DNA of 64,000 nucleotides from Geosiphon pyriformis uo1 (Eukaryota > Fungi > Glomeromycota). The DNA lies in the NCBI GenBank assembly GCA_016748015.1, contig JAAOMT010000348.1, positions 4,441 through 68,440 on the forward strand, given 5' to 3'. Both the position numbers and the translations under genes were made by a program. The stretch's first letter is position 1. Every line of letters starts with the position of its first letter. Under the pieces are notes generated by a model that was not told the DNA's origin, did no database searches, and was given only the letters and a program-made list of their open reading frames with translations. Shown here piece after piece: positions 5,909-59,181 of the stretch.

Positions 5909-6391
5909 TTAAGAGTAAGCTCTGTCAAAATCGAAATTAATTTCTTCATTAAATTCTAAGTTACTATAGTGGTTCAATACTGTGTTATTAATTTGTTGTT
6001 GTAATTCTTGAAATTGCGAGTTAGTAAGTTGTTTAATACTGTTGATTGTTATTATGTTCATGGTTGAGTCCAACAATAGTTTGTGACAGTTTTCAAATGC
6101 TTTGAAAATTCTGTAAACTGTTTTTGAATGAAATGTAGTATTGGTTTTTCCAAAGTGGCCTGAATGAATATCTGAGTGCATGTTAAATAAGATAGTTTTT
6201 TTTTCATCCATGGTTATAACTCTTAATGAATTATCTGAATTTTGTCGATTTCGGTAATAAAGTATGTGATTTTGGATGAAATAGTGTTTTGCTAATTTTT
6301 AGAGTTTAATTAGCTTTTTTACTGGCATTTCTTTGTCTATTTGTAGTGTTTCCAAGTATTGACTGAGGTTTTTGTAAAGGTAGTTGTTTAT
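5909..6391 (-). pseudogene. Element B integrase N-terminus fused in frame to ORF3 C-terminus
   Basis: MHSDIHSGHFGK (the two His of HHCC) runs directly into TNTTFHSKTVYRIF...FDRAYS*; no DDE core. Confidence 0.8.
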
Positions 6392-6420
6392 TGTTATTGT
6401 GGTGGGTGGGTTGGTGATTT

Positions 6421-13091: not shown

Positions 13092-13572
13092 CTATATCCA
13101 TTGCTTTGTTGAGTAAAATTTTTGGTTAATCCTGAAATGCTGTGTGTATTCAGTATATAGCTCGAGCTTGTATGGATAAGTTGTTTTTTCCCACAAAATG
13201 TTTTAGTTGTTGTAGTATTGTTGTGTCAAATAACTGCTTTGTTTTATCCATATATAAGTTCTGAATATTCACATATTGTCCCAAGTAAAAATAACAATAG
13301 TTTCTTGGAAATTGTTGTATTCACCAATTCCAAGTTTCTTTAATCAACTCTTGGTATATTGACTCTTTTGTCAATTCTTTTATTGCCAATTTTATTTTTG
13401 CAATGATTTTGTCGATGGTATTTTCTGGTTTCTTCTGTTTTCTGTGTTGTAATGTCTTTCTAGTATCTTGATATCAAATGGTTTGTTGATTGATTGTAAT
13501 TTCCATTTCTTGGTGTTGGATCAATTAAAAGAGTTGTTGTGCTAGTAAGTGAATATTGTCTGTAATTTCCAT
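13092..13572 (-). pseudogene. Element A ORF3, N-terminal part
   Basis: AAAAATG start at 13572; MEITDNIHLLAQQLF...; homologous to 33869-34498 and 57743-58304. Confidence 0.8.
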
Positions 13573-16330: not shown

Positions 16331-17974
16331 CATTGCATCTTCAGTCTTGATTTGGTGTTGGATGATGTCAGTATGGCCAAATTCATTTTTGCTGGCAAAC
16401 ATGTTGTTAAAATTGCTGAGCAACATCTTGAGCTGCATATATTGAAGTGGGTCTAAGTTTCCCATGTTCATTTGTTCCAATTGTTCTGGTTGGAGCAAAT
16501 AATATTCATTTCGTCTGTATATGGTTTGTGAAGTAATGTCGACATATTTGCACAGCTGTGGAAAGCCTGGTACAGTGTTTGGTGGCTGGTCTTCTATTTC
16601 TGTGGTCAAATATCTGATAGTGGTTCCTTCTGGTATCTCTACAACATTTTCTGTATTGTTGTAAATGGGAATTTTAATGTGATTATGGTTTTTGGCTGGT
16701 ATGTCGAGATTGATGAGTCCAATCCCTTCTGATTTACAAAGGCTTGCTTCTGCTTCAAAAATCTGTGCTTGATTTTTCACCTTTTTTTCTATTGCTATCA
16801 TGTACTGGTCATATGGTAGAATAGAAATTGCTTGACCGATTGAGATAAATTCTCTTTGGCTAATAGTTTTTTCTTCTATCATATTAACCAGTACATCTAT
16901 TTTATCTATGGATCCAAATTCCTGGATTTCTCTTGCTGTTATTCCTAATTCTTCTCTATTTCTCACTGACACTAACTGAGCTATCTTAACCAAAGGTAGG
17001 AATATTGCCTGTGCTATTTTTTTGTTTGGCTCTATAATATAGGCTTTTTCTGAGTCATTTTGTAGCATTGCCATGATATTTCTCACATATCTGGTATCAA
17101 TTATTTCTCCTCTGATATTTATTTCTTTTTTTGCTAGTTGAACTATGGTTGTTGCTAGAATTTCCAATGCTATTTTGAGATCAATGCAGGTGTGCAAATG
17201 TGGTTCCAATTTTATGGCATCTTTTTCTGGATACCTCAGATCAAATCCGACATCAGTATCATGTGCACATTCTAGCATAATACTTTCATCATTGTCACTG
17301 TACCATTTCAACTCTTGTTCTTTTGAGAGATCTGGTAAGGCAATGTATTGTTCATAATTGGGATTAGAGTCTGAATTTGAGTTAATTTCATTGCCATATT
17401 GAACTAAGCTGGAATCATTGTTGTCATCGTTATTGGAGTTTGAATCGGAATTGAAAATTGATTCTGATTCCGATGTGCAGTTGCTGATTGGTTTGATTTC
17501 TTCTGGGATTGTGTAGATCATGCATGGTGGTAAATTGTAAATGAGATTACACTCATTGCAATACTGAAAGTCACATGGAATCAAACAGTGGTCACATAGT
17601 TGAGTGTTTAGCTGTGCTAAATGCTCTTTCTGTTTTTCTCTTGTGGGTACCAGATTTTGGTAATGCTTGTGAAAGTTTTCTGAGTTGGTTTTAATGTTGA
17701 GGAAAGCATCTGGATTTGGAATCAGAATAATGTCAACTTGTTTAGGCAGGTTGTTTTTAATTTTCAGGATTTTGCTGGACATGGCTCCTTCTACTTTGGC
17801 ATTAGCCATTCGCCAGATTTTGTCTTTGTTGTGTAGATAACCTTCTAAGCGAGAGATTGCTTGGTGCCAGGTGGCTGTTATTGGCATGCCATGACTTACC
17901 CAATCGCTGATGAGAATCATGTATTGGCACAAAGTGTCGCATATTCCTCTCCAACCAGGAATGTCATTCCACAT
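16322..17974 (-). pseudogene. dut: Element A longest open segment: Cys-rich domain, dUTPase (~16900-17290) and dUTPase-like linker
   Basis: 550-aa ORF with CDHC..CNEC, DVGFDLRY, IIDTRYVRN, KIAQAI, AREIQEFGS; dUTPase motif 2 (SRSSL) is deleted in this copy. Confidence 0.9.
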
Positions 17975-18559
17975 TCCTTTGTCGAGTAAATGTTCGCCAC
18001 AAGTGAGACATAGTTTGTTGTCCCACTTGCTTTGTCATTTTGGGTAGCCATAGTGTTCTCTATCATATGGCTTGCAATAATAGTGAGTCCTCATCCAGTA
18101 GTCTTCATTAGGTGCAATCCATGCTCCCATGGAAGAGAGTTTCTTCTTATAGTCCTGACATTTTAAGGAAATGTAAGGTGGCTCCTTTACTGGCTCACAT
18201 AAGTATTTTCTTTCCCAGCCACTGGTTATTTTCTTGGTGACTTTGTCAGTTTCTTCAAGTAAGTCTTCTTTTTTTCCCTTTCTTTTTTCTTTCCAGCTTG
18301 TTGGTATTGATTTGTTTTCATTGTTATTGTTCTAAACGTCGATAGTAGTCTCCCAGGTATGTTCTTCTGTTTTTTTTCTTTTTCCCTTTACATTGTTCTT
18401 TTTTTCCCAGTCTAGAATTGGTGGTAGCTCATTGTGTTCGACGTCAGCCCATGATACTTAGTATGCCTCTCAAGTAAGCTTTAGTTTTTCCTCCTCGAAA
18501 TCAATAAGTGGTGCTGATGACATGATATTGTTGGGTTTGAAATGGCCACATGTTGCCGG

Positions 18560-33868: not shown

Positions 33869-34498
33869 ATAGAAATACCAAACCATATTTACACTTTAGC
33901 TCAACAACTCTTTCAACTAATACAATAATAAAAGATGAAAATTACAATCAATCAACAAATTATCAGATACAAAAACACCAAAAAAGAACCACAAGATAAA
34001 ATACGGAGAAAAACAGAAAATACTATTGATAAAATAATTACAAAGGCAAAATTGGTAATAAAAACACAACCAAAAGTTATTCAATATTAAGAGTTGATGA
34101 TAAAAACATAGAATTGATAGACACAACAATTTTCAAGAAACTTTTGCTATTTCTATTTGGAACAATATCTGAATATTCAGAACTTATATATAAACAAAAC
34201 AAAGCAATTATTTAATCCAGGAATATTACAACAACTTGAACAATTTGTGAAAAAAAACAATTTAATCACATAAGCATGAACCATTTATTGATTACAAATC
34301 GAATTTCAAGACCAACCAGAAATCTTACTCAATTCAACAATAGACTTTATTACTGTTAACCAAATGAAAAAAATAATCAATGCCCAATTTGAAAAATTAC
34401 AGAACAAGATAACACAAGTAATTCTCGAAAAAGAAGTTCAAGAAATATTTAAAGATAGAGCATTAGAGTTAAGGAATATTGACAGAGCTCAATATTAA
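33869..34498 (+). pseudogene. Element D ORF3, unknown function
   Basis: Start decayed to ATA; ends NIDRAQY* at the PPT; collinear with ORF3 of A and E. Confidence 0.8.
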
Positions 34499-34512: not shown

Positions 34513-35364
34513 TGTTATTCATAAAATATAAGAAGAATATTAGTATATAAAATAGCTAATTAGAAATAGATGTAGTAAATATGGAATTTTAAAATTTCTC
34601 TCAGAAAAATTGCAGGATTCCAAGAATTTCAAGATTCTCATATAAGAAATTGCAAAATTGCAGAATTGCAGAATTTCTCTCAAAAAGATTGCAGAATTCC
34701 AGAAATTTCAGAATTTTTGGTAAGAAAAATTGAGGAATTAAGGAATCTCAATTATGTATATATAGCAGTAGTAGTAAAAAAAAAGAACAGACCTCTCAAT
34801 TTAAATTTAATTTAAGCAATCTTCTACATCACAAATATCAATAAATAATTCACTTTCTCAAATTTACTCTCTACTATCAATGCTTTATGTTGATAGTAAT
34901 CAATACTTAATACATTAGAACAATAGCTCTTAATTATGACTATTGATAAAATACTAACTTGCAAATTGCCTTGGCTTATTTTCTTTATCATTTTTTTTAT
35001 CTTTTTTATTTCTTTTTGTTTTATTAATTGATTAATGATTAAAAAATGCTGAATTATAAACGTTATAGGGACTGGTAAAAGACTCATAAAACAAGGGTAA
35101 AACACTCATAATTGAGAATAGCTTACCAGAAGGATTACTGGCCACCATGCTGAAAAAAAAATTTGATAGAATTGCAATTCTAGGAGACTACTGACACAAT
35201 AATTGAATCTTTGTCCATTATACAAAGAACTCAACCAAAATCTTCAAACAACCAAAACTTTCAGATACAAACAATCTTTAGATATTACTAATGTCAACAA
35301 GCAAATTAGCACCAAGTTATGAGTTTGTTATTTGATTTGAAATCCTAAATAATCATCTGTAACA
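34513..35364 (+). repeat. Element D 3' LTR
   Basis: TGTTA...TAACA; near copy of 25374-26231. Confidence 0.95.
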
Positions 35365-37574
35365 ACATTAAAATTTCAATATACAATACAACCAGAAACT
35401 TTATAGAAATATCAAGTAAAACTACTATCAAATACTTAAGTACTGAAGTTGAAAACCAATTACCAATCATTATTTCAAATTTTTTACAACTGTATAGATA
35501 TGTGGATATTATATTACAAACTATATATAAACAAGAAAAATATTATTTCTTATAATCAAAATAATTAAAACAAATAAACTTGAGAAATTAAAACCTATTT
35601 TAATATATGCAACTTAAGATACTACTCAACAATTTCATTAATATTTTTGTCAATAAAAACAAATTTGGTAGAACTGATATTATACAAGACCAGATTAAAA
35701 CTAAAAATGATATGTTAATTAAACAAAAAACATAGAAAGTACTATTTGCTAATCATAAGATTATTCAACAAGAAATCAATTGAATGTTGAACAATAAGTT
35801 AATTTAACTATTAATAAGTTTATGGTTATTATTAGTGATATTTGTTCAGAAGAAAAATAAGAAAATCTGCTTTTGTATAAATTATAAAAAACTTAACAGT
35901 ATTATTTGTAGAGACAGCTATCTAATTCCATAGATCCAAAAACTATTTGACATTTTTGGAGGAAAGAAATAGTTTTCAACATTGGACTTAAATAATGGTT
36001 ACTAACAAATAGTCATGAATTTAGCTGATAAAAAAAAGACAGCATTTACTATCAAAGAAAAAAATTTTGAATTCAGTATTATGCTATTTGGCTTAACTAA
36101 TATTTTAACTATTTTTCAACATCTCATGAAAATTGTTTATACAGAATTACTATGAAAATTAGTAATAATTTATTTTGATAACATTAATATATTCTCAGAA
36201 ACATTTAATGATTATCTTTATTATTTCTAATAAGTGTTTAAAAGATTAAAACAAGTAGAGCTAAAGTTAAATGCCATTAAGTATTTTTTTAGAAAAACTA
36301 AACTCAAGTTATTGGAACATATTGTGAGCAAAAACAGCATAAAAACAAATTCAAACAAGATTAAAATAGACAAAAACTTCTTANNNNNNNNNNNNNNNNN
36401 NNNNNNNNNNNNNNNNNNNNNNNNNNNNNNNNNNNNNNNNNNNNNNNNNNNNNNNNNNNNNNNNNNNNNNNNNNNNNNNNNNNNNNNNNNNNNNNNNNNN
36501 NNNNNNNNNNNNNNNNNNNNNNNNNNNNNNNNNNNNNNNNNNNNNNNNNNNNNNNNNNNNNNNNNNNNNNNNNNNNNNNNNNNNNNNNNNNNNNNNNNNN
36601 NNNNNNNNNNNNNNNNNNNNNNNNNNNNNNNNNNNNNNNNNNNNNNNNNNNNNNNNNNNNNNNNNNNNNNNNNNNNNNNNNNNNNNNNNNNNNNNNNNNN
36701 NNNNNNNNNNNNNNNNNNNNNNNNNNNNNNNNNNNNNNNNNNNNNNNNNNNNNNNNNNNNNNNNNNNNNNNNNNNNNNNNNNNNNGTTGTCAAATAAAAA
36801 AAATACTTAAATTAAAAGTTTGATATATATATAGATTACAAAAAATTAACATTAATCCAAAAGCAAAAATTTGGAAATAATTACTATGTAAAATAAAAAA
36901 TAAAACTATTATTATTTAATTATATTGTATATTATAAAAAATAAAAAAAAATAAAAATACCAATAGTTTGTTATAAATAAGACAAATTTAAACATTTCAA
37001 TCCAAAAATATAACAAAAAATAAACATACAAAAATATTAACAACTTCAACACTATATTAAAACTTAACAGTTTAAGAAAAAATTATCTTAAAAAAAACAA
37101 AACAACATAAAACAACAATCAAAACATTTTATTATTTACTAAAATATACTATATTAAAAAAACAAAAAATATTTAAACCAGTTACTTAAAGTAATTACAG
37201 AACCAGAAAAAGAAACAATACTGTTTAACATGCACTCAGATCCAGTAGCAAAACATTTTTATAAAAAAACAACCATAGAAAAAACCAGAAAAAAATATTA
37301 CTGGCCATTTATGTATTTAAAAATTATCTAATATATTTAAAATTGTGATGCTTATCAAAAAAAAAAGAGAAACAAGATCCAGTAAACTGTTAAAACCAAT
37401 TAAAATAAGACAACTATTTGATTAAATTAGAATTAACTTAGTGAAACCATTAACTATAACTAGTAATAACAATTAATACATAGTAATAATCATAAATTAT
37501 CTCACAAAATAGCCAGAAGCAAAAGCAATTCAAAGAGCAAATACAGAATTTATAGCTGAATTTATTTACCAAAA
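35365..37574 (+). pseudogene. pol: H1 RT, RNase H end and integrase N-half (gap inside)
   Basis: CFCINYKKLN, IYFDN, LLEHIVS, MHSDPVAKHF. Confidence 0.85.
36384..36785. other. Assembly gap (N run)
   Basis: Run of n inside H1 RT/RNase H. Confidence 1.
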
Positions 37575-38363: not shown

Positions 38364-39478
38364 CAAAATTTGATTTGTTGATATGAATATCCAAAAAAAT
38401 TGTTATCAGACCAGAAAATCCACTTTATGAACAGAATATTAACAAAATTAAGCCAAAAATTTGGAATTAAAAGACTATTATTATTATCATATCATGTATA
38501 AACCAATAATTTAGTCAAAAGATTTAACAGAATATTGTGCAAAGTAATAGCCAAGATTAACCAAAAACATCAAGACAAATAAGATTTATTTATACTACCA
38601 GTATTATTTGCTTATTGGACAATAAAGCAAAATACTACACAAACAATATTATTTAAACTAGTCTATATTAAAACAGCAATATTACAGTTAAGATATATAT
38701 TAATATATATCTAACAAAACCAATAACAGAAGCTAACTTTTAAAAAACATTGCTAAAAAAAACATATGACTTAATAGAAACTTTAAAAAACAAAAGACAA
38801 AAAACAGTTAATAATATATATAAATTACAAACAAAACAAAAAAAATGACATGATAACCAATTATTAGATAAACTAGTCAAATTTAAGATTGAAAACAAAG
38901 TACTTTTATATTGTATCAAAGTAAAAAAACAATAGAATAAAAAATTTGACTTCAAATAGAACAGACTATTTTATATTAAAAAAATTCTAGGAAATAGAGC
39001 TTATAAATTAAGATAAACAACAAAATTTTAGCTAAAGTAACACATAGAAATTAACTAAAATTATAATACAATATAATATTATTATTTACCAATAATATTC
39101 CACAATTGGAAATACAATAAATACTAATTTAACCAAATGAGATTCCACAAAATCTAAAACCAGTTATAATTATTGATACAAACATGTCAAATTGATCTAC
39201 AAAAACAGTATATAAAAAATTAATATATACAATAAAAGCAAGTAAAAAAATGGAAATTACTGACAATATTTTCTCATTTGTACAACAATTATTACAACTT
39301 ATTTAACATCAAAAATCAAGTCTAGAAATTATTATTAACAAACAAGCAATTTAAAATAAAAACAAAAGAATAAATCAAAAATCTCAATATTCCAGATATT
39401 ATATTTCTGGAAATCTAGTAAACAAAATAATAGAAAAAGTGGAAAAGACTCTAAAAACTTCAAGGATAGTAATATTAG
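38364..39478 (+). pseudogene. H1 integrase C-half and start of ORF3 (ATG 39250)
   Basis: LLSDQKIHF, LVKRFN, ILGNRAYKL; then AAAAATG MEITDNIF, cut by element C. Confidence 0.85.
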
Positions 39479-40429
39479 TATTACCAATAAAATTTTAGCT
39501 ATTAATTAGCATGAAATTACCTTCATAATTCCTATTATATATTAGCATATATTATTATTATTTCGATTATTACTTATTATTTAATCAAATTATCAAATAT
39601 TATTACTCAATTAATAAACCAATTTGTACCATAAAAATTAAAATGATCAAATTACACAATACTCTGAACCATTTAATATAGTTAAAATTCGCCGAAATAA
39701 TTAATAGTTTGTACAAATAACTTGTAGTTCACCAAAATATATCTTTAGTTTGCCAAAATTAAAGCAAAGAAAAAAGTGCAAGTTCAAAGACTAGTATTAC
39801 AACAAGTTGTATAAAAAAAAAGCTTTTCTCTTCAAGAAAATGTATCTTTTTATATCATAGTATAGTATTTTACTTTAGATATCTTAATTATAACAAATCA
39901 TTTTTTACAAAAATCAAATAAAAATTAAAATATTCTAAAACCAAATTCTTAAATTATTACACTTAAAATTCTTTTAGCACAATTAACGTTTTGAAATTAA
40001 TTAACTACCAATTTCAATAAACTGTTAGTAACTCCAGGTCTGAATAGAAAATGTTTCTTTTGATAAAATCTTATTTTTTTTACATTTTTTTTATTTTTTT
40101 TCTCTTTTCTTACTATAATTATTAGAGTAGTCTGCAGACAAAATTTCTGTAGAAAAGTTAACTTTCACAGCAAAAGTAACTACACATTTTTAGTAAACTT
40201 CTAGATAAGCAATTCCTGAGAAGAAGTTGACATTTATTACAACATAATTACACAAAAAAACTGGCACAGAATTAGTCATTTTACTTATAAGTTCAGCAGT
40301 TCAAATTATAGAAGATAATTTGAAAATAAATTCAGTTATTGGAGGTTCAACTGCTTCCAAAAAACATAAAATTAGCAACAGACAAACATTAACAACATTC
40401 AAAAAAAAGACCAAAAACCTTTGGTAACA
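39479..40429 (+). repeat. Element C 5' LTR
   Basis: TATTACC...GGTAACA; near copy of 50299-51262. Confidence 0.93.
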
Positions 40430-40901
40430 TTTGGTGCTCTCTCACAGAAATAACATAGCAACAGCAAATTTAAAGTAGTGACCACACCAAACACAATAAC
40501 TCTAAAATATTATCAATCAATTTACATTCACTGCAAGCAAAGATTCAACATTTAAGACGGAATTGAAATTTTTAAGAAATCACTATACCAATATATTAAA
40601 AACTGCATCAACAATTATTTTTTTGGAAACTACAATATTTCAAAAGTCAGAAACAACTTTTACAATATTTTATTGTACTATTTACTATTGAGAACTAAAG
40701 ATTTTAACAGTGAAATACTTGTTACTTACTTTCAAGAACTTAACTTTAACATTATCCAGTACTGTAAAAAAAAGTATCTAGTACAATCCAAATACTTTCT
40801 TAACTTTAAATCAGAAACAGAGACAAGCAACAAAGGCAAAAAAAATTGAAACAACACTCAAAAACTGCTCCAAACACTCTAAGAATACCAAAAACAACTG
40901 C

Positions 40902-41890
40902 TGTTATCAGAGATTTTTGGTCTCTTTTCTTGAATGCTGTTAATGTTAATTTGCTGTTAATATTAATTTGCTGTAAATTTACATTTCCAAGAAGTAGTTG
41001 AACCTCCAGTAACTGAATTTATCTTCAAATTATCTCCTATAATTTGAATTATTGGGCTTATAAGTGGAATGGCCAATTTTTTGCCAGTTACTTTATGTAG
41101 TTCTATTGTAGTAAACATTAACTCTTTCCTAGGAATTGCTTATCTGGAAGCTCACTAAAAATGTGTAGTTACTTTGCTGTGAAAGTCAACTTTTCTACAG
41201 GAATCTTGTCTGTAGGCTACCTTAATAATTATAATAAGAAAAAAAAGAAAAATAAAAGAAATATAAAAGAAATAGAATTTTATCAAGAGAAACGTTTTTC
41301 TATTCAGGCCTGGAGTCACTAACAGTTTATTGAAATTGGTAGCTAATCAATTTCAAAACGTTAGTTGTGTTGAGAGAATTTTAAGTGTGATAATTTAAGA
41401 ATTTGGTTTTTCGAATATTTAATTTTTATTTGAATGTGTAAAAGTGATTTGTTTCAATTAAGATCTCTAAAGTAGAATGCTATAGTAAGATACTATAAGA
41501 AGATACATTTTCTTGAAGAGAGAAGCTCTTCTTTTATATAACTTGTTGTGGTACTAGTTTTTGAACTTGCACTTTTCTCTTTGCTACAATTTGGGTGAAC
41601 TTAAGATATATTTCAGCAAATTTACAAGTTATTTCACTGAACTATTGATTATTTCGGCGAATTTTCATTAATTTCGGCAAATTTTGACTATGTTAAATGG
41701 TTCAGGGTATTGTGTAATTTGATTATCTTAATTTCTAGAGTACAAATCTGATTATTGATTAAGTAATAATATTTAATAATTTGGTTAAATAATAAGTGAT
41801 AATCGAATTAATAATAATGTATGCTAATTAATAATAGGAATTATGAGAGTAATTTCATGCTAGTTAATGACTAAAATTTTACTGGTAACA
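40902..41890 (-). repeat. Solo LTR (C-type), inverted, in element C gag
   Basis: TGTTA...TAACA; perfect TSD CTGC (40898-40901 / 41891-41894). Confidence 0.95.
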
Positions 41891-42240
41891 CTGCCAAATA
41901 CTTGCAAACACCTGAACAAGGAACCAGCATTAAATTATTACTTTTTATTATACCATTTCCAATTTCACTTGCTTAACCATAAACACCAAGTTCACCACTT
42001 ATCTGTTTCTTCAGACCAGAAGATTTTTAGTTACCTAAAAATCTTACTCAACAGCAAAAACCAATATCAATTAGCACTAATATTATTAATTATTTACAAG
42101 AAAATAAAAGTAATCATTCAAAAAACTTAGAAAGTAAAGAAACTAAATCAGAACAAGAAAAAACTACAGAAAATGAAAAAAAATGGCAACTGTTTATATT
42201 GCAAAAATCCCAAATTTACTGGTGAAAATAATAATACCAG

Positions 42241-43222
42241 TGTTACTGGAGGTTTTTGGTCTCTTTTCTTAAATGTTGGTAATGTTGATTTGCTGTGAAT
42301 TCACGTTTTCAGGAAGTAGTTAAACCTCCAATAACTGAATTTATCTTCAAATTATCTCCTATAATTTGAACTGCTGGGCTTATAAGTGGAATGGCCAATT
42401 CTTTGCCAGTTACTTTATGTAGTTCTATTGTAGTAAACGTTAACTCTTTCCCAAGAATTGCTCGTCTGGAAGCTCACTAAAATGTATAGTTACTTTGCTG
42501 TGAAAGTCAATTTTTCTACAGGAATCTCGTCTGTAGGCTACTCTAATGATTGTAATAAGAAAAGAAAAGGAAATAAAAGAAATATAAAAGAAATAAAATT
42601 TTGTCAAGAGAAACGTTTTCTATCCAGGCCTGGAGTCACTAACATCTTACTGAAATTGGTAGCTAATCAATTTCGAAATGTTAGTTGGTTTTTGAATTTT
42701 TTTCCAAGTGCAATAATTTAAAGAATTTGGTTTTTCGAATTATTTGATATTTATTTCTTTTTGTGTGTATAAGAACGGTTTTAAGAGATAAATCTAAAGG
42801 AAGATATTTTTTTCTCAAAGAAAGAAGCTTTTCTTTTATACAACTTGTCGTAACACTATTCTATGAATTTGAACTTTGCTATTTTCTACAATTTTGCTGA
42901 ACTAAAGATACATTTTGGCAAACTACAAGTTATTTCTGCGAACTTATTAGATATTTTGGTGAACTATCAATTATTTCGGCGAATTTCTATAAATTTCAGC
43001 AAACTTTTGAATGTTACATAGTTTGAGGTATTGCATGATTGATCATCGCAATTAGGTTACATTTGTGTTGTGTACAATTTGGGTTATTAATTAAATGATA
43101 ATTTCGGACATTCTTTGCTAATGTAATAAGTGATAATTTGAAACGATAATATATGCTAATTAATGATTGGAATTATAAGATAGTTTCATGCTAAATGATA
43201 TCTCTAATTTCGTCTGGTAACA
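42241..43222 (-). repeat. Solo LTR (C-related subfamily), inverted, in element C gag
   Basis: TGTTA...TAACA; perfect TSD CCAG (42237-42240 / 43223-43226); one half diverges from the other C-type LTRs. Confidence 0.95.
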
Positions 43223-44219
43223 CCAGCTTTCAAAAATGGCTTAACAAAGTCCAAAAAGCAGAAAATGCAAATAAATAAAATACAGCAAAAATGTTCAAAG
43301 CAATTTCATACCTTCTTTAAAAAATTATAGAAGAATGATTTGAAAACTTAGAAGAACCATTTGGAAACTGGCAAGCATTCAAAAATGCTTTCTTATAACA
43401 ATTCACTGACAACAACACTTTTATCACTCTCCAAAATCACTTTTACAATATTAAACAAGAAACATCTAAAACTGTTATAACCTATCTTGGAAGATTTAAT
43501 AATCTTCTTAGACAAATTTGACAATTAGAAATCAATTAATACTATTTCAATGCCCAGATTTTGGATCAGTTTATAGCAGAATTAAAAGACAAATTGATCA
43601 AAAAAATTTGCCCACCTGCTCTAGAACACTTAGCAATAGTCATTAAACATGCAAAAAACTATAAAATAACAATAGAAGAAGCAAACCATATCAAACTTGT
43701 GAATCTTGCTATTAAAAAAACCAGCTCAGCAGCTGAAGAAAAAATTGATCAGCTTACAAAAAAGGTTGAAAACTATCAATAACAGCAACAACAAACACAA
43801 AAATATTAACCACCACAACAACAAAACCAAACCAACTACCCATTATTATTAAACAGTTAAAACCAAAGTTGTCATTATTGTGGAATTCTAGGACATTGGA
43901 AACAAGACTGCAAAAAGCTACAAAGAAACCAACAAAACAGGAGTAATTAATGTTACTTTTCAACATAGCAATTTCATTATCAGCCTTCACTACCAGTCTA
44001 CTATTTCTCAAGATTCCAACAGCAAAACAGTTACTATTAACCTTCTTTTAGCAACAATATCAACAACCTTTACCAATTCAACAGTATCAACAGCCACTTA
44101 TACAACAATATTAAGTACCTGTCCAAAGATTGATTTAACAAAACCAATTCACACCCCAAAATTAATTCCATAATAATAATAACAGAATCAACTTAAACAA
44201 CTAGTTGGTTTCTCAAAAT

Positions 44220-44409: not shown

Positions 44410-47400
44410 TAAAGTTGCAGTACCAAAATTAAACTCTTTCAACAATACTATTCCATTAGTCCAAATTGCTCAAAATACCAATTTTTCAGATATATTTCTA
44501 TTTGAATTTGAAGCCAATGAATCACCATTCTTGTTTAGCAATATAGCTGTCAATGAGCAAAAAACAATTATTGCTATATATACTGAAGCTAAAGTGAAAG
44601 GAAAACAAATCTGCTTAATTCTAGACAGTAGATTAGCTAAAAGTATTATTATTACCTACCAACTAATGCAACAACTCAACCAAAATATTGACAGACCAGC
44701 CCAAACAGTAATTGTTATAGCTGATAGTATAAAAAAAACCCCAGTAGGAGAAATTGATAACTTTTTTTTCACAGTTAATAAAATCACTATTTCAGTCAAA
44801 GTTTTAGTCATGAATGCACTCCAATACCAAGCTTTTGTTGGAAATGATTGGTTTCTCAAGACCAATGCAAATTTAGATTGGGAAATTCAGGAATTGAAAA
44901 TTTCGTATTAAGAACAATATACCAAAGTACCTACCATTTGTAGTATTTTTAATAAAAAATCTGAAAAAGTCCCAGTATTCGAATTTAAAAAAGAGAAAGA
45001 ACTACCAATCACTGAAACCTTTATGGCTCTTGGATTAATATCCAATTGGGCTGAGAAAACAGAACAAGAACTCTTTGAGGAAACCAGAAGATAGAATATA
45101 GTTAGATATTTTACATCAAAACTATGAAAACAACCATTTTATATCCTACTTAAATGCAAAAATTGCAGCAAGAAACTTTTATCAATGGGAGCATGTATCT
45201 CCTCAGAAGAAAAATATGAAACTTGTACCTATTACTACTGTAAAACATGCCATAAAAAATGATTTAGATATTCCAAACAAAATGGAAAATAGGACAACAC
45301 TTCTTGTCTTACATATAAAGATATGTTATCAGAAGAATGCAACTGGATTAATGTTGCAATAAAAAGAGGAGTATGTGATCAAACTTGTCAATATGCTCTA
45401 TCAATCTCGGAAAAAGTGAGAAGAAAAACACTTTTTAATGCAACATACAACAGTGTTTTTAACAAACTCTACCATTACCTTTATAATGCTGAAATGATCT
45501 TTAATTTAGCAATGGCTTTAATCAATAAAGCCACACAAAAAGATGTTTGCCAAATAAAAGAAGCTAATTATATTGAATACACAATAGAATTACCTAAATT
45601 TAACTATAAAGATGAAGTAAAAACATATCACCAGATTACAAGCCATACTTATCTAACCCAAAAAGCTCAAATTCAATGATTGAAGCAAATAAATATTCAA
45701 TTGTATGAAGAATACATCATGCTTTGTAATGACAAATAGTGTTCAGAATGCTATGCTCTTAGCATCTTTTTACTTAACAAAAATGACTAAGAAGAAATTG
45801 AGTTTAAAGAATCTAGGCTAATAGAAGAAATTACAACAACTCCAATCTATCTTACTAAAAATCAGTCTGTTATACAACTCATATACTTTAACAACAATAG
45901 ACAAAGAATAAAACCAAAAAAAGCCCACGATATAGATGTTAAATATGATCTATAATACTCAGGAAAAGATATTTTAGTTCTCTAACCAAAATCCTTAACC
46001 AAAATCAACTTCAAAATTGCTCTTAAAATACTATCAGGAGCAATAGTACAAATTGCTTCTCAATCATCATTGGCAAGCAAAGAAATCAATGTTAGAGGAG
46101 GAGTTATAAATGCAGAATATACTGAAGATATTACCATCATGTTACAGAATAAAACAGACAAACCATTTAGGATTGAACATGCAGAAAAGATTGTCCAAGC
46201 AATTTATCTATCCTTAATCAACATTTTGGGTTTATAATTAGTTAACAACAGAGAATTATTATTTCACTTTTTGGAGAACATCACGAAATTTACACTTGCT
46301 CAAAACTCACTATTACTTAACAAATCTTTGAATCTAATAAACAAATCTGTTTAAAACATAAAATTTCAATTTCAAATGTTTATATTCTTAAAGAAATGAA
46401 GAAATTTTGAGTTATATTCTACAATCCCAACAATTACTTTATTGTCTTATTAAATAAATTAAAAATTAGAATTATATATAGCAATATCTTTCAAGATGAA
46501 AACTCTTAAACTGTCTCTAATTTCATTGAAATTATAAGACATATCTTACTTTTCAATCCAAATATTATCTCTACTATTGAAAGCTACTACCTTTTGAAAG
46601 AAAAACTTTCTCGAATCAACATGAGTCTTTTAGAACCCCAACAACAAAGACAACTGAAACAGCTAATAGTTTAATTTGCAAATATATTTACAAAAAACAA
46701 CAATGACTTAGAAAAACTGATATTGTCTAACATCAAATCCACACAAGAGATGCTTTACCAAAATGACAACAAGCTTATTAAGTACCACCTGCCAGTCACC
46801 AATTCATCAGAGAAGAGGTCCAAAGAATGTTCAATAACAGATTGATTTAACCATCAAGAAGTCCATGGGTCTTACCAATAGTTTTGATTAAAAAGAAAAA
46901 TAGAAAAATCAAATTTTGTGTTGACTATTATCAATTAAACAGTGTAACAATTAAAAATGCCTACCCCTTTCCAAGAATTGATAACATGCTAAATGCTCTA
47001 AGAAAAGCCAAGTTCTTTTCAACTTTAGACTTAAAAAATGAATACTGGCAAATCGAAATAGACTCAAAAGATTGACCCAAAACAGCATTTTACTATCCAA
47101 AAAAAAAACTATAAGTTCAATGTTATGTTTTTTGAACTCTGCAATGTACCAACAACATTCTAGCAATTTATAAATGTTGTTTACAAAAAACTTTTATGGC
47201 AATTAGTAGTTGTTTATCTGGATAACACTAATGTGTACTTACCAAGCTTTGAAGTTCATCTTATCTATCTGTAAAAAGTTTTTCAATAATTATAGAAAAC
47301 AAGATTAAAATTGAACATTGAGAAATATCACTTTGGAAAAACAAGTTTAATTTTTTTTAAACACATAGTTAACAAAAATAGAGTCAAACCAAATTGTAGA

Positions 47401-49611: not shown

Positions 49612-50287
49612 ATGATTATTCTCTGAAATATTCAACAAATATTTCAAAAATTAATATTAGCTTTAAAAACACTTCCTGATTTATTCATAATAATTAATGG
49701 AAATCAAATTAATTACACTTAAAAAAAAACCACAACACCAGTAGTAAATAATTTTCAAAATTATTATCCTTATAGAAAAAAAACAAAAGATTACTCTGGA
49801 AATCAATTACCAAAACTTTTGAAACAAGCACTAAAAGAAAACTTTTTATTTGCTCCTATTGACATTCTACCAAATGCCACAATCCAACAAAAACTTCTAT
49901 TATTTTTAATGAACAAAACAATGAACATACTCTTATTTATAGATATTTTCATATTAGAAAAACACTCTATGAATGAAAACTAGAACTTGAAGCAACCAAC
50001 ATTACTCCTGAAGCTATACAAAAACAAATTCACAATAAATTCAAGACAGCAGCTGAACCAACAAATACTTGCTACAAACTTAGAGCAGTATTTAGACTCT
50101 ATGATTTATTCAATACTTGTGAAAACGTCCTACAAAATCTAATACTTCACCCAATAAAGATTCAATACATTGGAAAGCTTACAGAACTAAAATTTCAACA
50201 ATTTTTAGACCAAATCACTTCAATTATCTTGGATTACTATTTTGACATTACAAATAGTGCTTAAACTTTGATAAAGTTCAGTCTTGA
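49612..50287 (+). pseudogene. Element C ORF3, unknown function
   Basis: ATG at 49612; IIINGNQINY...LRAVFRLYDLF...IGKLTELKFQQF...FDKVQS* ending at the PPT. Confidence 0.72.
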
Positions 50288-50298
50288 GGAGAAGATTA

Positions 50299-51262
50299 TG
50301 TTACCAGTAGAATTTTAGCTATTAATTAGCATAAAATTACTCTCATAATTCCTATTATTAATTAGCATATATTATTATTATTTCGATTATCACTTATTAT
50401 TTAATCAAATTATCAAATATTATTATTTAATTAATAACCCGATTTGTATTATAAAAATTAAGATGATCAAATTACACAATATCCTAAACCATTTAATATA
50501 GTTAAAATTCGCCGAAATTGATGAAAATTCGCCAAAATAATCATTAGTTTGTAGAAATAACTTGTAGTTTACCAAAATGTATCTTTAGTTTGCCAAAATT
50601 AAAGCAAAGAAAAAAGTGCAAGTTCAAAGACTAGTACTACAACAAGTTGTATAAAAAAAAAGCTTTTCTCTTCAAAAAAATATATCTTCTTATATCATAG
50701 CATAGTATTTTATTTTAGATATCTTAATTATAACAAATCATCTTTTACACATTCAAATAAAAATTAAATATTCAAAAACCAAATTTTTAAATTATTACAC
50801 TTGAAATTCTCTCAACACAACTAACGTTTTGAAATTGATTAGCTACCAATATCAATAAACTGTTAGTGACTCCAGGTCTGGATAGAAAACGTTTCTCTTG
50901 ACAGAATTCTATTTTTTTTACATTTCTTTTATTTTTCTTTTATTTTTTTATTTACAATTATTAGGGTAGCCTACAGATAAGATTTCTATAAAAGAGTTGA
51001 CTTTCACAGCAAAGTACAATTTTAGTGAGCTTTTAGATAAGCAATTCCTGGGAAAGAGTTGATGTTTACTACAATGTAATTACACAAAGTAACTGGCACG
51101 GAATTGGCCATTTCACTTATAAGTCCAGCAGTTCAAATTATAGGAGATAATTTAAAGATAAATTTAGTTATTGGAGATTTAACTGCTTCCAGAAAACGTG
51201 AAATTAACAACAGACAAACAGTAACAACATTCAAGAAAAAAGACCAAAAACCTCTAATAACA
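50299..51262 (+). repeat. Element C 3' LTR
   Basis: TGTTACC...TAACA; near copy of 39479-40429. Confidence 0.95.
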
Positions 51263-54200
51263 GCAGACATTCCTACAATATTTCAGTAATAATAATAGCA
51301 TCAACTGATTGGCAAACACTTTTACCATCATTAAGCAAGGAGAAAATGAAGCAGTCACTACTTACTTAGGACACTTTCACAGAAATCTGCACCAAATTTA
51401 GGCAATCCAGGCTGATTATTTTACAGCACCCTAAATTCTAAATCAATTCATTTAAGATCTATGCAGTAGCATTTTTCAGTATGTATGCTCAATGCATTCA
51501 ACAGATCTTCAAGCTGCAGTTACAAATGCAAGAGACTTTGAAGCAGCTGAATTAGAAGCCAATCACACTTAAGCAGTAAATTTAGTAATGAACAGATCAT
51601 CTGAATTGGATTCCAAATTAAAACAATTTAGCAAATCAATTAATCAGAAATTAGAGCAGTACTTAGCTAACACCAATTAAGCAATTTATCAACCCCCACA
51701 ATAATGCAACAATTAAAGAAATAAAAATTGCTTCCAAAATCAGTTGTGTCCAAAATCATCCTCGACCAATCAACAGTGGCTACAGGAAACATGTGCATAC
51801 TATTATTGTGATAAACAAAAACATTTACAATTTAAATGTCAAAGAAAGATAAGTGACCAGAGATCAGCTAATCAGTATTGAAACTTCAATCGCCGATTAC
51901 AAACTCAGAATTATGTCAGTAATTAATCACCAGAATAATATTAACCAAATTACGTACTTATGACACAGCAGCAAATTTATTAATCATCAATTTATCAACC
52001 AACAACACTTGTCATTTATTAACCACAGCCCTAACCCATTTATCAGCCATAATCTTAGGTAATTTATCAGCCCCAACAAATCCAAACACTCCCAAAACTT
52101 ATCTTAAAATGGAACCCAAAGGCCAAAACTAATACAGCAAAGCTGAAAATCATCAATAGTAGTTCATTAACTAATCCTCAGTTTCTCTATACAACCATCA
52201 GAATTGCGACAATAGAATTTGGGCACCAAGTACACCCAAAACCTGAATTCTTAGAACTATTTAAGTCTCCTAGTCACCCCAAAAGACACTACATCCAACC
52301 ACCTGGAATCCAACCAGAAACAGCCACTTACCAGCAATATTTCACCAACAACTGTCATTAACAACAAGTTACTCACAGCTATCTTCCCATTCAAACTTGA
52401 AGAACTGACATCTACACCCTTGTTCAGTAGAGCTGCACTCAAAAAAAAACCAATTCCCACGATGTACACTGACACCAAAGTTGATGGTCATCTTATTAAA
52501 TTGATCCTAGATAGTAGATCAGCTGGCAGCATCATCACAAGACAGCTCATGGACCAATTAGGTTGCTGAGTTGATTGAACTGCCAGTGCAAGGATAATTA
52601 CAGCTAATAAAACCACCAAGACTCCAATTGGTGAAATAGATAACTTGCCAATAGAAATCAATAGCATTACTGTACCAATCAAGGTATTAGTCATGGAAGC
52701 CACTCAATATCAAACACTCATGGACAATGATTGGCTGTTTAAAATCAACATGACACTTTACTAGAACATCTAAGAGCTCCAGCTTAGCCAGAATAGATAA
52801 TACACATGTGTACTAGCCATGTGTGGCCACTTCAAATCCATTACTATGCCATCAGCTCCACTTATCAAATTCGAAGAAACCTATTTGGGAAGCCTATCAA
52901 GTATTCTTGGGCTGACAAAAACCACAATGAGCTACTACCAATATTTTTGTAAGACAATAATAAGAGAAAAAAAAAGGAAAAAGAAGAACTTACTTGGAAT
53001 GCTGACTAAGTCTAGGAAACTAATAATAATCAAGATGAATTAGCAAACTGGGAATGAGAAAAGACTGACAAGGAAAAAGAAACAATACCTACCAGCTCCT
53101 TTTATAATTACTACACCTACACTATACCACAATAATCTACCTACTGTCGGCCAAAACTTATATGCATTGATTGCAGCAAAAAATTGTTATCAATAGGCAC
53201 ATGTTATGACGATAATAAGAAACATCAAATGGCAACCAAATTTTACTGTTGTCCATACATCATAGAACACTTTGGACAATTAAAACAGCAAAGAAAATGG
53301 GACAATAAACTATGTCTCGCATGTGGAACTATTTTGCCTAATGAAAAAATATGGAATGACATTTCTGGATGCAAAGGAATATGCGATGAGATGTGCCAGT
53401 ATATGATTCTAATTAACAACTGGGTACACAAGGGAACACCAATTGATGACGCCTGGAAACAAGCATTGTGACAATTAGAAAGATATTCCCATAATGAAGA
53501 TGAACTCTGGAGAATGACGAGTGTGAAAGTAGAGGATGCGACAACCAGTGAACTACTGGAAATCAAAAACAACTCTCTATTTTTTTCTAAATCTGAATAC
53601 ATCCAAACTTTTGATGTCTTTGGTAATATTGAGGATAACTCAAAAGAATTTCATGAATATTATCAGCAATTAGCATCTACTAGGAAAGAACAAGAGCAGC
53701 ATTTAGAGCAGTTAAATACTCAATTATGTTAACATTGCTTAATTCTTTGTGACTTCCAGTATTGTAATGAGTGTGATCTCATTTATAATTTACCATCATA
53801 CATAATCTACATGATTCCAGAAGAAGAACCAATCAGCAGCTGCACATCAGAATCAGAATCAGTTTTCAATTCCAATTCAAACTCCAACAATGTTGACAAT
53901 AAAAACACCAGTTTTAGCTCTGCTCAATATAGCAACAAAAATATCAATGATTCAGACTCTGATTTAAACCCCAGAATATACATCACACTTCTTGATCTTT
54001 TTAAGAAGCAGGAACTCAAATAGTATAGTGACAATAATAAAGGTATTATGCCAGAATGTGTGCATAATATTGATGCAGGGTTTGATCTGAGATATTTGGG
54101 AAAAAAAGCCATCAAATTGGAACCAAATTTGTGCACATATATTGATTTCAAAATAGCTCTGGAAATTCTAACAACAACCATGATTCAATTAGCATCTAGG

Positions 54201-56272
54201 AGTAATTTAGTGAAAAAAAAATCAACATTAGAAGAGAAATAATTGATATAGAATACATAGAAAATATCATTGTCATGCTACAAAATAATTCAAAAAAAGC
54301 CTATATTATAAAGCCAAATAAAAAGATAGCACAGGCAATATTCTTACTTTTGGTAAAAATAGCTCAATTAGTTTCAGTGAGAAAAAAAAAAGAACTAGGT
54401 ATCACAGCTAAAGGATTATAGAGATTCGGAGCAACAGGTAAGATAGATATACCAGTCAATATAACAGAGGAAGAAATTGTTGACAAAGAAGAAATTATCT
54501 TAACCCATCAATTAATTTTTATTTCACTATATGACCAGTATATGTTAGCCATAAAAAGGGAAGTAAAAGATCAAACTCAGTTGTTTAAAGCAGAAGCCAT
54601 CATTTGCAAATTAGGAGAGATTGGACTCACTAATCTCTACATATTAGCTAAAAGCCCCAAAAACATCAAAATTCCCATCTACAACACAACTGGAAAGGTC
54701 ATCAAAATACCAAAGAAAACCATTATTAGATATTTAACCACTGAAGTTGAAAATCAACCACCAAACTACATTCCAGATTTTCCACAGCTTTGTGAATATG
54801 TGGACATCACATTACAAACTATTTACAGATGAAGCAAAAGTTATCTGCTCCAACCAGAACAATTGGAACAGATGAACATAAGAAATTTAGACCCACTCCA
54901 ACAGATGCAACTAAAAATGTTACTCAACAAATTCAATGACATCTTTGCCAGTAAAAACAAATTTGGCAGAACCAACATAATTCAGCATCAGATCAAGACT
55001 GGAGATACAATGCCAATTAAACAAAAAGCATATTGAGTACCACCAGCCAGCCATGAGATTATTCATCAAGAAATCAATTGGATGTTAGACAATGGGCTAA
55101 TTCAGTCATCAATGAACCTATGGTTATCACCAGTGGTACTGGTCTATAAGAAAAATAGAAAAATCCGTTTTTGTGTAGACTACCAGAAACTGAATGGAGT
55201 GACAAAAGGAGACAGCTACCCAACTCCAAAAATTCAAGAGCTGTTTGACACTTTTGGAGGAAAAAAATTGTTTTCAACATTGAACTTAGACAGTGGTTAT
55301 TGGCAAGTAGCCATAAAGCTAGAAAATAAAGAGAAAATGGTTTTTACAACACGAAAAAAGAATTTTGAATTTGAAGTAATGCTATTTGGCTTAATGAATG
55401 CTCCAGCAACATTTCAATGGCTTATAGAAATTGTCTATACCAGGCTACTATGGAAATCAGTAGTCATATACTTGAATAACACTAATGTGTTCTCAAAAAC
55501 ATTTGATGATTATCTGCATCATTTCCAACAAGTATTTGAAAGACTCAGAAGAGCCAGATTGAAACTAAATGCAACTAAGTGTTTTTTTGAAAAAACTGAA
55601 CTCAAGTTTTTGGGACATATTATAAGCAAAAATGGTATAAAAACGGATCCAGATAAGATTGCAATAGTAAAGAACTTTCTAGTACTAACTAATCTGACAG
55701 AACTAAGAGTATTTTTGGGATTTATAGGCTATTATTGTCATTTTATTAAGGACTTTTCTAAACTGGCTCAGCCATTTCATCATCTACAAACTAAGAATGT
55801 CAAGTATGAATGGACAGGAGCTCAACAAAAAGCATTTGACACACCAAGACAAAAGCTTATTCAAGCTCTAGTGTTAATGTATCTAGATTACAGCAAACCA
55901 TTCATCATCACCACTAATGCATTAGGCCAAACATTAGAAACCGTACTATTACAGAAAGAACCAGATAGAAGAAAACATCCAGTAGTTTATGCCAGTAGAA
56001 GCTTAAGTTCAGCTAAAAAAAACTATGAAACTTCAGCACTAGAGCATTTAGCAATCTATTGGGCTGTCACCAAATGGAAAAAATACTTAAGCCAAAAGTT
56101 TAATATATATACTAATCACAAAGGGTTGACTTCAATCCAGAAGCAAGAATTTGGAGATGATTGTTATGCAAGATAGAAAATAGCACTATCACCATATAAA
56201 TTTATAGTACATTATAAAAAGGGAAAAGACAATAGAAATGCTGACAGTTTGTCACGAATAAGACAAATCTAA
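51263..56272 (+). pseudogene. gag-pol: Element E ORF1 remainder: gag C-half, protease, Cys-rich domain, dUTPase (54048-54440), RT-RNase H (open 55082-56176)
   Basis: LILDSRSAGSII; DAGFDLRY, ASRSNL; RFCVDYQKLN, NAPATFQ, VIYLNN, VYASRSL; ends DSLSRIRQI*. Confidence 0.92.
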
Positions 56273-56304: not shown

Positions 56305-57680
56305 ATAAATACACAAAAATACCAACAACTTCAGCATTATATAAATACCCAATTGTTTAAGGAGAAATTATTTCAAAAAGAACAAAACAACATAAAACAG
56401 CAATCAAAATATTTTATCAATCATCAAAATATATTTTCCCAAAAAAACCAAAAAAATTTAGACCAACCAACCAGAGTGATTACAGAACCAGAAAAAGAAA
56501 CAATACTGTTCAATATGCACTCAAATCCAACAGCAGAACATTTTTATAAAGAAACAACCATGGAAAGAACTAGAAAAAGATATTATTGGCTATTAATGTA
56601 TCCAGATATTATCTAATATGTTCAAAATTGTAATGCTTGTCAGAAAAAAGGAGGAACAAGACCCAGTAAATCATTAAGATGAATCAAAGTGAAACAACCA
56701 TTCAATCATATCGGAATTGACTTAGTCAGACCATTAACAATTACCAGTAAAGGCAACAAATATATTGTGATAGCCATGGACTATCTCACTAAATGGCCAG
56801 AAGCAAAAGCCATTCAAAGAGCAGATGCAGAATCTGTTGCTAAATTCTTTTATCAAGACTTAATCTGTTAACACAAATATTCAAAAGAACTATTATCAAA
56901 TCAAAGAACTCATTTTGTGAATAGAACATTAGAAGAATTAAGTCAAAGATTTGGAATTAAAAGACCATTGTTATCATCATACTATCTACAAACCAATAGA
57001 TTAGTTGAAAGATTCAATAGAACATTGTGGGAAGCAATTGCCAAAATCAGCCAAAAAAATCAAAATAAATGGGATTTGTTCATATCATCAGTATTATTTG
57101 CTTACTGAACAATAAAGCAAGATACTACACAAACAACACCATTTGAATTAGTATATGATAAGACAGCAACACTACTAGTAGAGATAAAAGTATGAACATA
57201 TCCAAAAAAACCAATAACAGAAGAAAATTTCCAAAGAACATTGTTGAGAAAAACGTATGACCTAATAGAAACACTAGAAAACAGACAACAAAAAGCAGCT
57301 GATAATATCCAAAAGTCACAAGAAAAGCAAAAAGAAAGACATGATAACCAACTATCAGAGAAACCAGTTGAATTCAAGATTGAAGACAAAGTACTTCTAC
57401 ATTGTACCAAAGCAGAAAAACAATAGAGTAGAAAATTTGACCCCAAATGGGACAGACAATTTTACTTAAAAGAAATTCTTAGAAATAGAGCTTATAAATT
57501 AAGGTTGAACAACAAAATTTTAACCAAAGCAGCATATGGTAATCAACTGAAACAATATTACCATATAGTATCATTATCTATCAGTAATATTCCACAACTA
57601 AGAGTACAGAGAATACTAGTTAAACCAGATGAGATTCTATAAGATTTAGAACCAATTATAATCATTGAACCAAACACATA
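56305..57680 (+). pseudogene. Element E integrase (separate ORF)
   Basis: MHSNPTAEHF...CNAC, GIDLV, MDYLTKWPEA, LVERFN. Confidence 0.92.
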
Positions 57681-57742
57681 AAATTGAACAACCAAAAGAG
57701 TATATAAAGACACAGTATATGTGACAAAAAGACAGCAAAAAA

Positions 57743-58304
57743 ATGGAGATTACTGAGAACATTCATTTACTAACACAACAACTTTTCCAATTGATCCAAC
57801 AACAAGAGATGGAAATCACAATCAGTTAACAGACTATCAAATATACAAATATCAAAAAAAAACCACAAGATAAAAAATAGAAAAATACAGAAAACATTAA
57901 AAACTTGGGATTAGTGGATACAACAATTTCCAAGAAATTTTTGTTACTTCCACTTGAGATGATACTTGAATATTCAAAACTTATATATAGATAAAACAAA
58001 ACAATTATTTAACACAGCTATACTGCAACAACTAGAACAATTTGTGGAAAAGAACAATTTGACAACACAAGCAAGAACTATCTATTGGCTACAAACTGGA
58101 TTTCAAGACAGATCAGAAATTTTACTTAATCTAAAAATAGATTTTATTACAGTTAACCAAATGGGGAAAATAACTAACACCCAATTTGAAGAATTACAGA
58201 ATAAGATAACACAAGTAATTCTCAAAAAAAAAGTTCAAGAAATACTCAAAAATAGAGAATTAGAGTTAGGAGATTTGGGAAATTTCGACAGAGCTCAATA
58301 TTAA
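57743..58304 (+). pseudogene. Element E ORF3 (internal deletion near 57898)
   Basis: AAAAATG MEITENIHLL...; open C-terminal 112 aa ending GNFDRAQY* at the PPT. Confidence 0.82.
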
Positions 58305-58317
58305 AAGAAGAAAATAA

Positions 58318-59181
58318 TATTATTCATAAAATATAGAAAATATATTAGCATATAAATTAGCTAATCAGAAGTAGCCATAGTAAATGTGAAATTCTAGGAT
58401 TCCTCTCAAGAGGAATTGCAGGATTTCAGGAATTTCAGGATTCTCATACAAGGAATTGCAGGATTCCAGAATTCTAAGATTCCTCCCAAAAGAAATTACA
58501 GGATTCCAGAAATTCCAGAATTTCTGGTGTAAAGAATTGAAAAATTAAGGAATTTCAAATATGTATATATAGCAGTAGTACTAGAAGTAGAAAAGACAGA
58601 ATTCTTTAGTTAAAAAAAAAGACCTCTCAGTTTAGATTGGATCTGAGCAATCCTTCATATCACAAATAAATAATTATTTAATATCTCAAACCCACTTTCC
58701 ATTATCAACACTTTATGTTGATAGTAATTGATACTTAACCACACTGGAACAATAGCTCTTGATTATGGCTATTGACAGAATACTAACATTTATTGTCTTG
58801 GCTTATTTCTTTATTTTTCTTTTATTTTTTGTTATTTTTTTGTTGTTTACTAAATTGACTAAAAAATTAAGTGCTGAATTACAGACATTATAAAGACTGG
58901 TAAAAGACCTGTGAAACAAGGATAGAACACTCATAGATTTGAAAATAGCTTACCAGAAAGATTACTGACCATCACACTGAGAAAAAAATTCGACAAAATT
59001 GAAATTCTAAAAGGCTACTAAAACAACTATTAAATTTCTGCCTATTATACAAAAGACTCGACACCAAAACCTTCAGAACAATCAAACATTCAGATACCAA
59101 CACCATCATCATAAATAGCTTCTAAGCACCAAGTTATGAGTTTGTTATTTGCTTTGAAATTCCAAATAATCACCTATAATA
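58318..59181 (+). repeat. Element E 3' LTR (A-type)
   Basis: Homologous to the D LTRs; termini decayed to TATTA...TAATA; preceded by PPT AAAAGAAGAAAATAA. Confidence 0.92.

Follow-up and report, generated by a model that had tools for sequence, protein, structure and literature searches.

A stretch of the genome of the glomeromycotan fungus Geosiphon pyriformis (assembly GCA_016748015.1, contig JAAOMT010000348.1) raises the question of whether an open reading frame in the env position of an LTR retrotransposon, between integrase and the 3' LTR, is a gene, and what its product could do. The whole 64,000-nucleotide stretch analyzed is referred to below as the window, and the frame, flagged at positions 57743–58304, as ORF3. 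An earlier note, made from the sequence alone, took it for one of several copies of a conserved gene encoding a soluble helical accessory protein.

ORF3 copies in a nest of LTR retrotransposons

The window is AT-rich and consists of nested LTR retrotransposons. The elements carrying ORF3 have paired LTRs, a polypurine tract (PPT), and the gag-protease-RT-RNase H-integrase order of Ty3/gypsy elements. In three of them gag, protease, dUTPase, RT, RNase H, and integrase could be read in this order with stops written as X; the dUTPase of carrier elements is located between protease and RT (Table 1). A profile of 61 ORF3 sequences, searched against all six frames of the window, found ORF3 at exactly six places, namely in elements A (split in two), B, D, H1, C, and E. 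Each copy lies downstream of integrase sequence in a dUTPase-bearing Ty3/gypsy element, five of the six reach the PPT, and the same six-frame search revealed no ORF3-like sequence inside the LTRs of the window. The motifs quoted earlier (ITINQQTIRY, ARTIYWL, etc.) were all present where they had been placed.

The claim that a sense ORF follows integrase holds for these six places, but the flagged copy itself is not open, and none of the six is intact. The copy in E has stops within its first 50 codons (57743–57895) and lacks 77 nt relative to that in D, and its last 112 codons are open; it is a dead remnant, a pseudogene. The copies in B and H1, which had been listed as partial, are indeed so; in B, a deletion has fused the integrase zinc finger to what is left of ORF3, its last ~80 codons.

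The reported ending of ORF3 on the PPT is correct for clade A/D/E/B, but in family C the frame runs on into the LTR. Intact C-type proteins pass through the PPT and end in ...SLEEEIMLPVEF or ...MLPDEIRDII, and the LTR at 42241–43223 opens with codons for the end of the 239-residue C subtype. Before the PPT lies a conserved DNA motif that clade A/D/E/B reads as D-G/R-A-Q-Y-stop; C and the metagenomic locus L001 described below read it in a frame shifted by one, which gives E-L-x-L-E-E-x-I-M-L-P. FDKVQS, offered as the C terminus of family C, is out of frame, and the terminal match between families is this DNA motif read in two frames.

Several other features of the nest were recorded. The long first ORFs of A, E, and C contain an unannotated cysteine-rich stretch between protease and dUTPase (16700–18000 on the minus strand; 53000–54000 and 44900–45600 on the plus strand). 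Element B has young-looking LTRs (91% identical), yet one deletion (5909–6400, minus strand) has removed its integrase core and most of ORF3, fusing the flanks into an open frame of 129 codons; B is possibly a non-autonomous derivative. Three C-type LTRs located in a row at 39471–43223, two of them in opposite orientation, are probably solo LTRs inserted into the 5' end of element C. The cut ORF3 of H1 and the cut gag of E are linked by element C, which suggests recombination between two insertions. The long six-frame ORFs listed at 1896–2532 and 36384–36785 are due to runs of N (assembly gaps).

Table 1. Coordinates of ORF3 copies and associated features in the window and, where indicated, in metagenomic locus L001
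Feature	Position	Strand
ORF3 of element E, pseudogene; stops in 5' part, 77-nt deletion with frameshift; 57966–58301 open	57743–58304	+
Spacer of 55 nt from integrase TGA to ORF3 of E; TATATAA 42 nt before ATG	57688–57742	+
Integrase of E, separate decayed ORF; H2C2 zinc finger, rve core, SH3-like tail	56305–57687	+
Rest of gag-protease-dUTPase-RT-RNase H of E, decayed; final stop conserved across families	51270–56272	+
PPT of E, overlapping the ORF3 stop codon	58303–58314	+
3' LTR of E; U3 with TTC-n-n-G(A/G)A repeat array ahead of TATA box	58318–59181	+
ORF3 of element D, full length in one frame, broken by stops	33869–34498	+
ORF3 of element A, 5' part; element B inserted into ORF3	13092–13572	-
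ORF3 of element A, 3' part; ends at PPT of 3' LTR	4893–5045	-
ORF3 of element B, last third only; deletion joins it to integrase zinc finger	5909–6151	-
ORF3 of element H1, 5' third; truncated by C-type LTR	39250–39470	+
ORF3 of element C (divergent family), frameshifted; frame continues through PPT into 3' LTR	49612–50318	+
RNase H/integrase junctions	56272/56305; 32406; 15077 (-); 6433 (-); 48025; about 36990; L001 774/799	
U3 repeat arrays	58390–58540; 22221–21900 (-); 13095–12770 (-); 50298–50700; L001:3380–3600	

Conservation and relatives of ORF3

Conservation at the protein level across families, as claimed earlier, was borne out by an end-to-end alignment of family C with family A/D/E (hhalign probability 95.3, E 2.1e-8, 187 columns) despite only 20% identity. 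Between the decayed window copies, dN/dS was 0.14 for D-E, 0.23 and 0.36 for the two parts of D-A, 0.25 for D-H1, and 0.48 for D-B, the latter from a gappy alignment. Since transition-rich decay alone lowers dN/dS, the substitutions were permuted as an added test. In the ORF3 frame, 35 of the 91 codons changed between D and E were synonymous (null 0.23, z 3.6), as were 30 of 94 between D and A (z 3.0). The other two sense frames gave z < 0, so that the ORF3 frame was the only sense frame with a synonymous excess; the mirrored antisense frame reached z 3.0 (D-E) and 1.5 (D-A). The controls were not clean, with LTR z of 2.0 and 2.7 in two of six frames and z 2.1 for the integrase tail on 41 codons. 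The LTR comparison 34513–35362 versus 58320–59181 gave its codon-like z of 2.7 in one antisense frame, which may be noise of six tests.

Two outcomes had been named that would speak against a separate gene, namely a lack of codon constraint between families and a match to a known integrase C-terminal domain. Neither was observed: the constraint is present, the SH3-like tail lies inside integrase, before its stop, and ORF3 has no such match in Pfam. ORF3 is kept in the same place over its full length in at least six families. Judged from sequence comparison, ORF3 is a real, conserved stand-alone accessory gene located between integrase and the 3' LTR in a dUTPase-bearing Ty3/gypsy lineage.

Relatives came almost entirely from the same fungus. 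With the D copy as query, all 81 protein matches were named as Geosiphon pyriformis hypothetical proteins, and so were all 120 matches listed for the C copy (the best 120 of 146). When 1.84 billion representatives were searched with a profile, 116 matched; 10 proteins were looked up, of which 8 were from Geosiphon and 2 were metagenomic. Among 100 newly found relatives, 17 were less than 50% identical to the five reference ORF3s. A third search, of 5,177 candidates, yielded 100 matches at E <= 10; Geosiphon was named as the source of 98, and 2 had no species name. Near-full-length stand-alone ORF3 accounted for 103 of the 363 proteins fetched. At 50% identity, the 130 well-covered relatives clustered into six groups; a seventh is the B type, seen in fused gene models only.

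In a metagenome scan, 2 of the 592 candidate stretches were confirmed (L001 and L002), both with ORF3 behind integrase. L001 has the order RT-RNase H, stop, integrase with one internal stop, 316 nt, an intact 230-codon ORF3, PPT, and LTR. In L002 the integrase tail is followed by an extra 137-codon ORF (398–811) without a Pfam match, and then by ORF3. Because of this extra ORF, some members of the lineage may have four cistrons. A check of whether homologues always follow integrase gave this position in six of six window copies and two of two metagenomic loci, and in all eight ORF3 is a sense additional ORF of the kind termed aORF-3S.

In trees of RT-RNase H DNA and of ORF3 protein alike, A clusters with D/E, and L001 with C. 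The trees are quick and unrooted, the former with 6 sequences and the latter with 10 proteins, in which Geosiphon proteins stand in for the window families. They fit the inheritance of ORF3 together with pol across families. No relatives were found on viral contigs with one metagenomic member as query. The kinship with a large protein family of arbuscular mycorrhizal fungi, suggested in the earlier note, was not confirmed, as the profile searches gave no protein named from another fungus among the matches looked up; the sole hint in that direction was a Mucoromycota cluster with an Atlas score of 0.90, below the Atlas trust mark. No description of the ORF3 family or of the split integrase in these fungi was found in a literature search covering mainly openly accessible papers.

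Cistron structure, predicted protein and possible roles

Integrase lies outside the Gag-Pol frame in all seven loci inspected (six in the window and L001). A stop occurs 4–5 codons after the RNase H motif, and integrase begins about 24–33 nt later, or further in A, behind a short A/C-rich spacer; a second in-frame stop precedes integrase in A, D, and H. Integrase is therefore not the last domain of a Pol polyprotein in the carriers. This separation is a variant architecture, and the carriers stay in Ty3/gypsy. Since integrase is a separate ORF beside ORF3, the element has three cistrons.

In all four copies of clade A/D/E/H1, the commonly annotated start of ORF3 is located 53–55 nt behind the integrase TGA. 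In A and D there is a further in-frame ATG upstream of it, 23–24 nt behind this TGA, which many Geosiphon gene models use as the start. Only in A and H1 is ORF3 in frame with integrase behind one TGA and free of further stops. In C, L001, and L002 the distance is 143, 316, and about 700 nt, respectively, with stops or another ORF between. A TATA-like motif was found at -40 to -42 in four of the six upstream regions, all from clade A/D/E/H1, against a background of 0.054 per 50 nt; it is absent upstream of ORF3 in C and located at -126 in L001. This motif may be an internal promoter of ORF3. No conserved splice acceptor was seen in the upstream regions. The similar short spacing at both cistron junctions suggests termination and restart, and read-through of the TGA appears possible only in clade A/D/E/H1 (in frame in A and H1).

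The ORF3 product has 210–245 residues and 0–3 cysteines. The basic stretch at residues 31–70 contains 6–11 K/R in nine of ten proteins and 5 in the tenth, basic residues are also conserved in the predicted helix 95–109, and the last 35 residues form an acidic tail with 6–8 D/E. Two metagenomic members are acidic overall (pI 5.4 and 5.9). In a full-length model built from 14 sequences (pLDDT 68), a weak helix and hairpin at the N terminus are followed by a disordered linker that leads to a helical core. When modeled separately (154 residues, from 61 sequences), this core consisted of eight helices, with a pLDDT of 93.6 and a pTM of 0.88. Together with the low hydropathy of all ten proteins, this all-helical core agrees with the earlier view of ORF3 as a soluble helical protein, and the lack of a membrane segment argues against Env. 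Residues common to most families are Y-x-Y..IG..L, G-K-T-N, R/K-A..R-L-Y..F, LL, and N..G.I/L-T..F, among which no obvious catalytic set was recognized.

The core matches no known family or fold at threshold. Searches of Pfam, PHROGs, and PDB sequences gave no such match, and the rows below threshold included importin-5 (E 0.02–0.2) and phrog_23683 of unknown function (20 of 61 members, best E 0.0004, C family only). At E <= 0.001, Foldseek matched neither the full model to any entry of PDB or BFVD nor the core model to any entry of BFVD. The best VIA-align Z was 5.3 for the full model and 4.5 for the core, so that the core had no structural match at Z 5 among 48,161 chains. Four of the best 50 structural rows for the core were ParB-type DNA-binding domains (Z 3.2–4.3, rmsd 3.1–4.7, 59–95 residues aligned), namely Spo0J (Z 4.3, rmsd 4.7, 91 aligned), KorB (Z 3.4, 95 aligned), ParB (Z 3.3), and VirB (Z 3.2), tied in rank with unrelated helical proteins. 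DUF1016_N (PF17761) was the Pfam family matched by most members (5 of 61, all from family C, best E 0.0028), at 13–18 bits versus the Pfam cut-off of 32.8; it also appeared in the Atlas list at 0.85. An hhalign comparison with eight DUF1016 proteins, an 8-sequence profile, gave a probability of 0.6%, E 0.09, and a score of 16.7 versus a shuffled maximum of 19.6. These are weak, non-significant hints of a ParB/DUF1016-type helix-turn-helix in the modeled core.

The U3 repeat arrays are family-specific: every LTR family carries a motif, chosen by eye, that the other families lack, with 3–6 copies in A/D/E, 4 in C, 5 in L001, and 2 in B. These arrays may resemble heat-shock, forkhead, and E2F-type sites, and the motifs may simply be sites for host factors. 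Perfect palindromes are no general LTR feature, being clear only in E3 among the 13 LTRs examined.

Our tentatively preferred reading is that the ORF3 protein could be a nuclear DNA-binding accessory regulator of the element's own transcription. It was chosen because of the basic linker, the helix-turn-helix hints, the acidic tail, the place beside the 3' LTR, and the family-specific U3 repeats. From its N terminus, the protein would have a short helix with a hairpin, then a basic linker leading to a compact core of eight helices, and finally an acidic tail; the helices around the conserved G-K-T-N...R-L-Y..F stretch would form the helix-turn-helix. It could be made as the third cistron, either by ribosome restart 23–24 nt behind the integrase stop or from the internal TATA promoter. 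The basic linker would carry it into the nucleus, where it would bind the family-specific repeats in U3 and, by analogy with foamy-virus Tas, raise transcription or hold off silencing. Extra ORFs at this position have been proposed to act like retroviral accessory factors (PMC7264820). A more far-reaching version, which we regard as speculative and on balance improbable, is that the lineage is built like a complex retrovirus. Its cistrons would be Gag-PR-dUTPase-RT-RNase H, integrase, and ORF3, the last encoding a helix-turn-helix protein, possibly derived from bacterial ParB/DUF1016, that drives or protects transcription via the element's own LTR repeats. If so, a self-recognizing helix-turn-helix ORF3 would help to explain the LTR burst in Geosiphon-like genomes.

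It is rather unlikely that ORF3 is instead a partner of integrase, bringing integrase or cDNA into the particle or nucleus, or tethering integration to chosen chromatin. The position of integrase in all seven loci speaks for such a partner, since integrase outside the Gag-Pol frame needs another route into the particle, and no chromodomain was found on these integrases. The constant 53–55 nt to ORF3 in the four copies of clade A/D/E/H1, stop-free and in frame in A and H1, fits a variant in which some integrase-ORF3 fusion could be made by read-through of one TGA, as in SIRE1, whose env-like ORF lies behind a single stop and is expressed by stop suppression (PMC2829016). However, the longer gaps of 143, 316, and about 700 nt in C, L001, and L002 contain stops or another ORF, and none of the 363 fetched proteins joins an integrase tail to the ORF3 N terminus. 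The joint loss of the integrase core and most of ORF3 in element B is uninformative on the partnership.

RNA binding, unlikely in our estimate, would make ORF3 a silencing suppressor or an RNA chaperone or coat for the element genome, possibly derived from an RNA virus. The closterovirus coat protein family was the top Atlas match of a metagenomic member (score 0.91), but this match shares only 138 of 256 features, the recognition value of the query was below the mark, and the other Atlas query did not list this family. Closter_coat was likewise matched by no member among the 25 Pfam families listed. The absence of filamentous plant-virus coat proteins from the best 50 VIA-align rows does not exclude them. 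The basic linker would suit RNA binding, as would the fast evolution of ORF3, with 17%–42% identity between families versus 54%–76% nucleotide identity of RT-RNase H.

That ORF3 is a captured fragment of a host or bacterial gene, a passenger without a role in transposition, is highly improbable: no function could be assigned and all window copies are broken, but at least six families keep ORF3 in one position and over its full length despite an identity of about 20%, under codon constraint and with an RT-like tree. An Env-like membrane or cell-to-cell movement protein, suggested by position only, is barely credible and as a membrane protein largely refuted, since none of ten proteins has a hydrophobic segment (maximum 19-residue Kyte-Doolittle mean 0.27–1.29), cysteines are few, and no Env family was matched in Pfam.

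Comparison with known systems

Extra ORFs before the 3' LTR are common, and almost none has a known job. Those in sense orientation that lie between pol and the 3' LTR form an established class, the aORF-3S, which includes the env-like ORFs of Athila, Bagy2, and SIRE1 (PMC7264820). Like ORF3, aORF-3S are sense ORFs present in most copies of a family and of unknown function; however, those described in that source are from plants or insects and often have transmembrane segments, whereas ORF3 of the Geosiphon type is fungal and soluble, has no Pfam match, and lies behind a separately encoded integrase. ORF3 represents a real, undescribed family of soluble proteins within this known kind.

The LTR elements of bdelloid rotifers are alike in having dUTPase in pol, a non-Env ORF3, and variety at the level of families (PMC5408684). 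Rotifer ORF3s, as presented there, are recognizable enzymes (GDSL, DEDDy) or membrane proteins, whereas the fungal ones matched none of these in Pfam and appear to have been inherited across families rather than swapped. The accessory gene Tas/Bel1 of foamy viruses is also located near the 3' LTR, and Tas is a DNA-binding activator of the LTR and of an internal promoter (PMC517496, PMC8670036); our searches listed no match to it in sequence or fold, and a comparable activity of ORF3 is suggested by analogy. GENE23 of maize Grande, an aORF-3R, is an accessory gene in the 3' internal region with a nuclear product and its own promoter, but it is antisense and from a plant, and homology with ORF3 was not seen (PMC7264820). 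DUF1016_N (PF17761) and ParB/KorB/Spo0J have a spacing similar to the Y.x.IG...G.K...R.Y..F of ORF3, and weak structural rows; they differ in being bacterial and no retrotransposon genes, and their scores are below every threshold.

About 100 or more Geosiphon "hypothetical proteins" are genes of retrotransposons and not of the host. LTR elements make up 41.2% of the G. pyriformis genome (PMC11952901), and an activator or anti-silencer encoded by the elements, if that is what ORF3 is, would be a candidate cause of this high share. Since many intact natural copies exist, ORF3 is directly testable. Set beside the systems above, the ORF3 family is old (20% identity), probably inherited with pol, and soluble, with a domain that is confidently folded in prediction yet unmatched.
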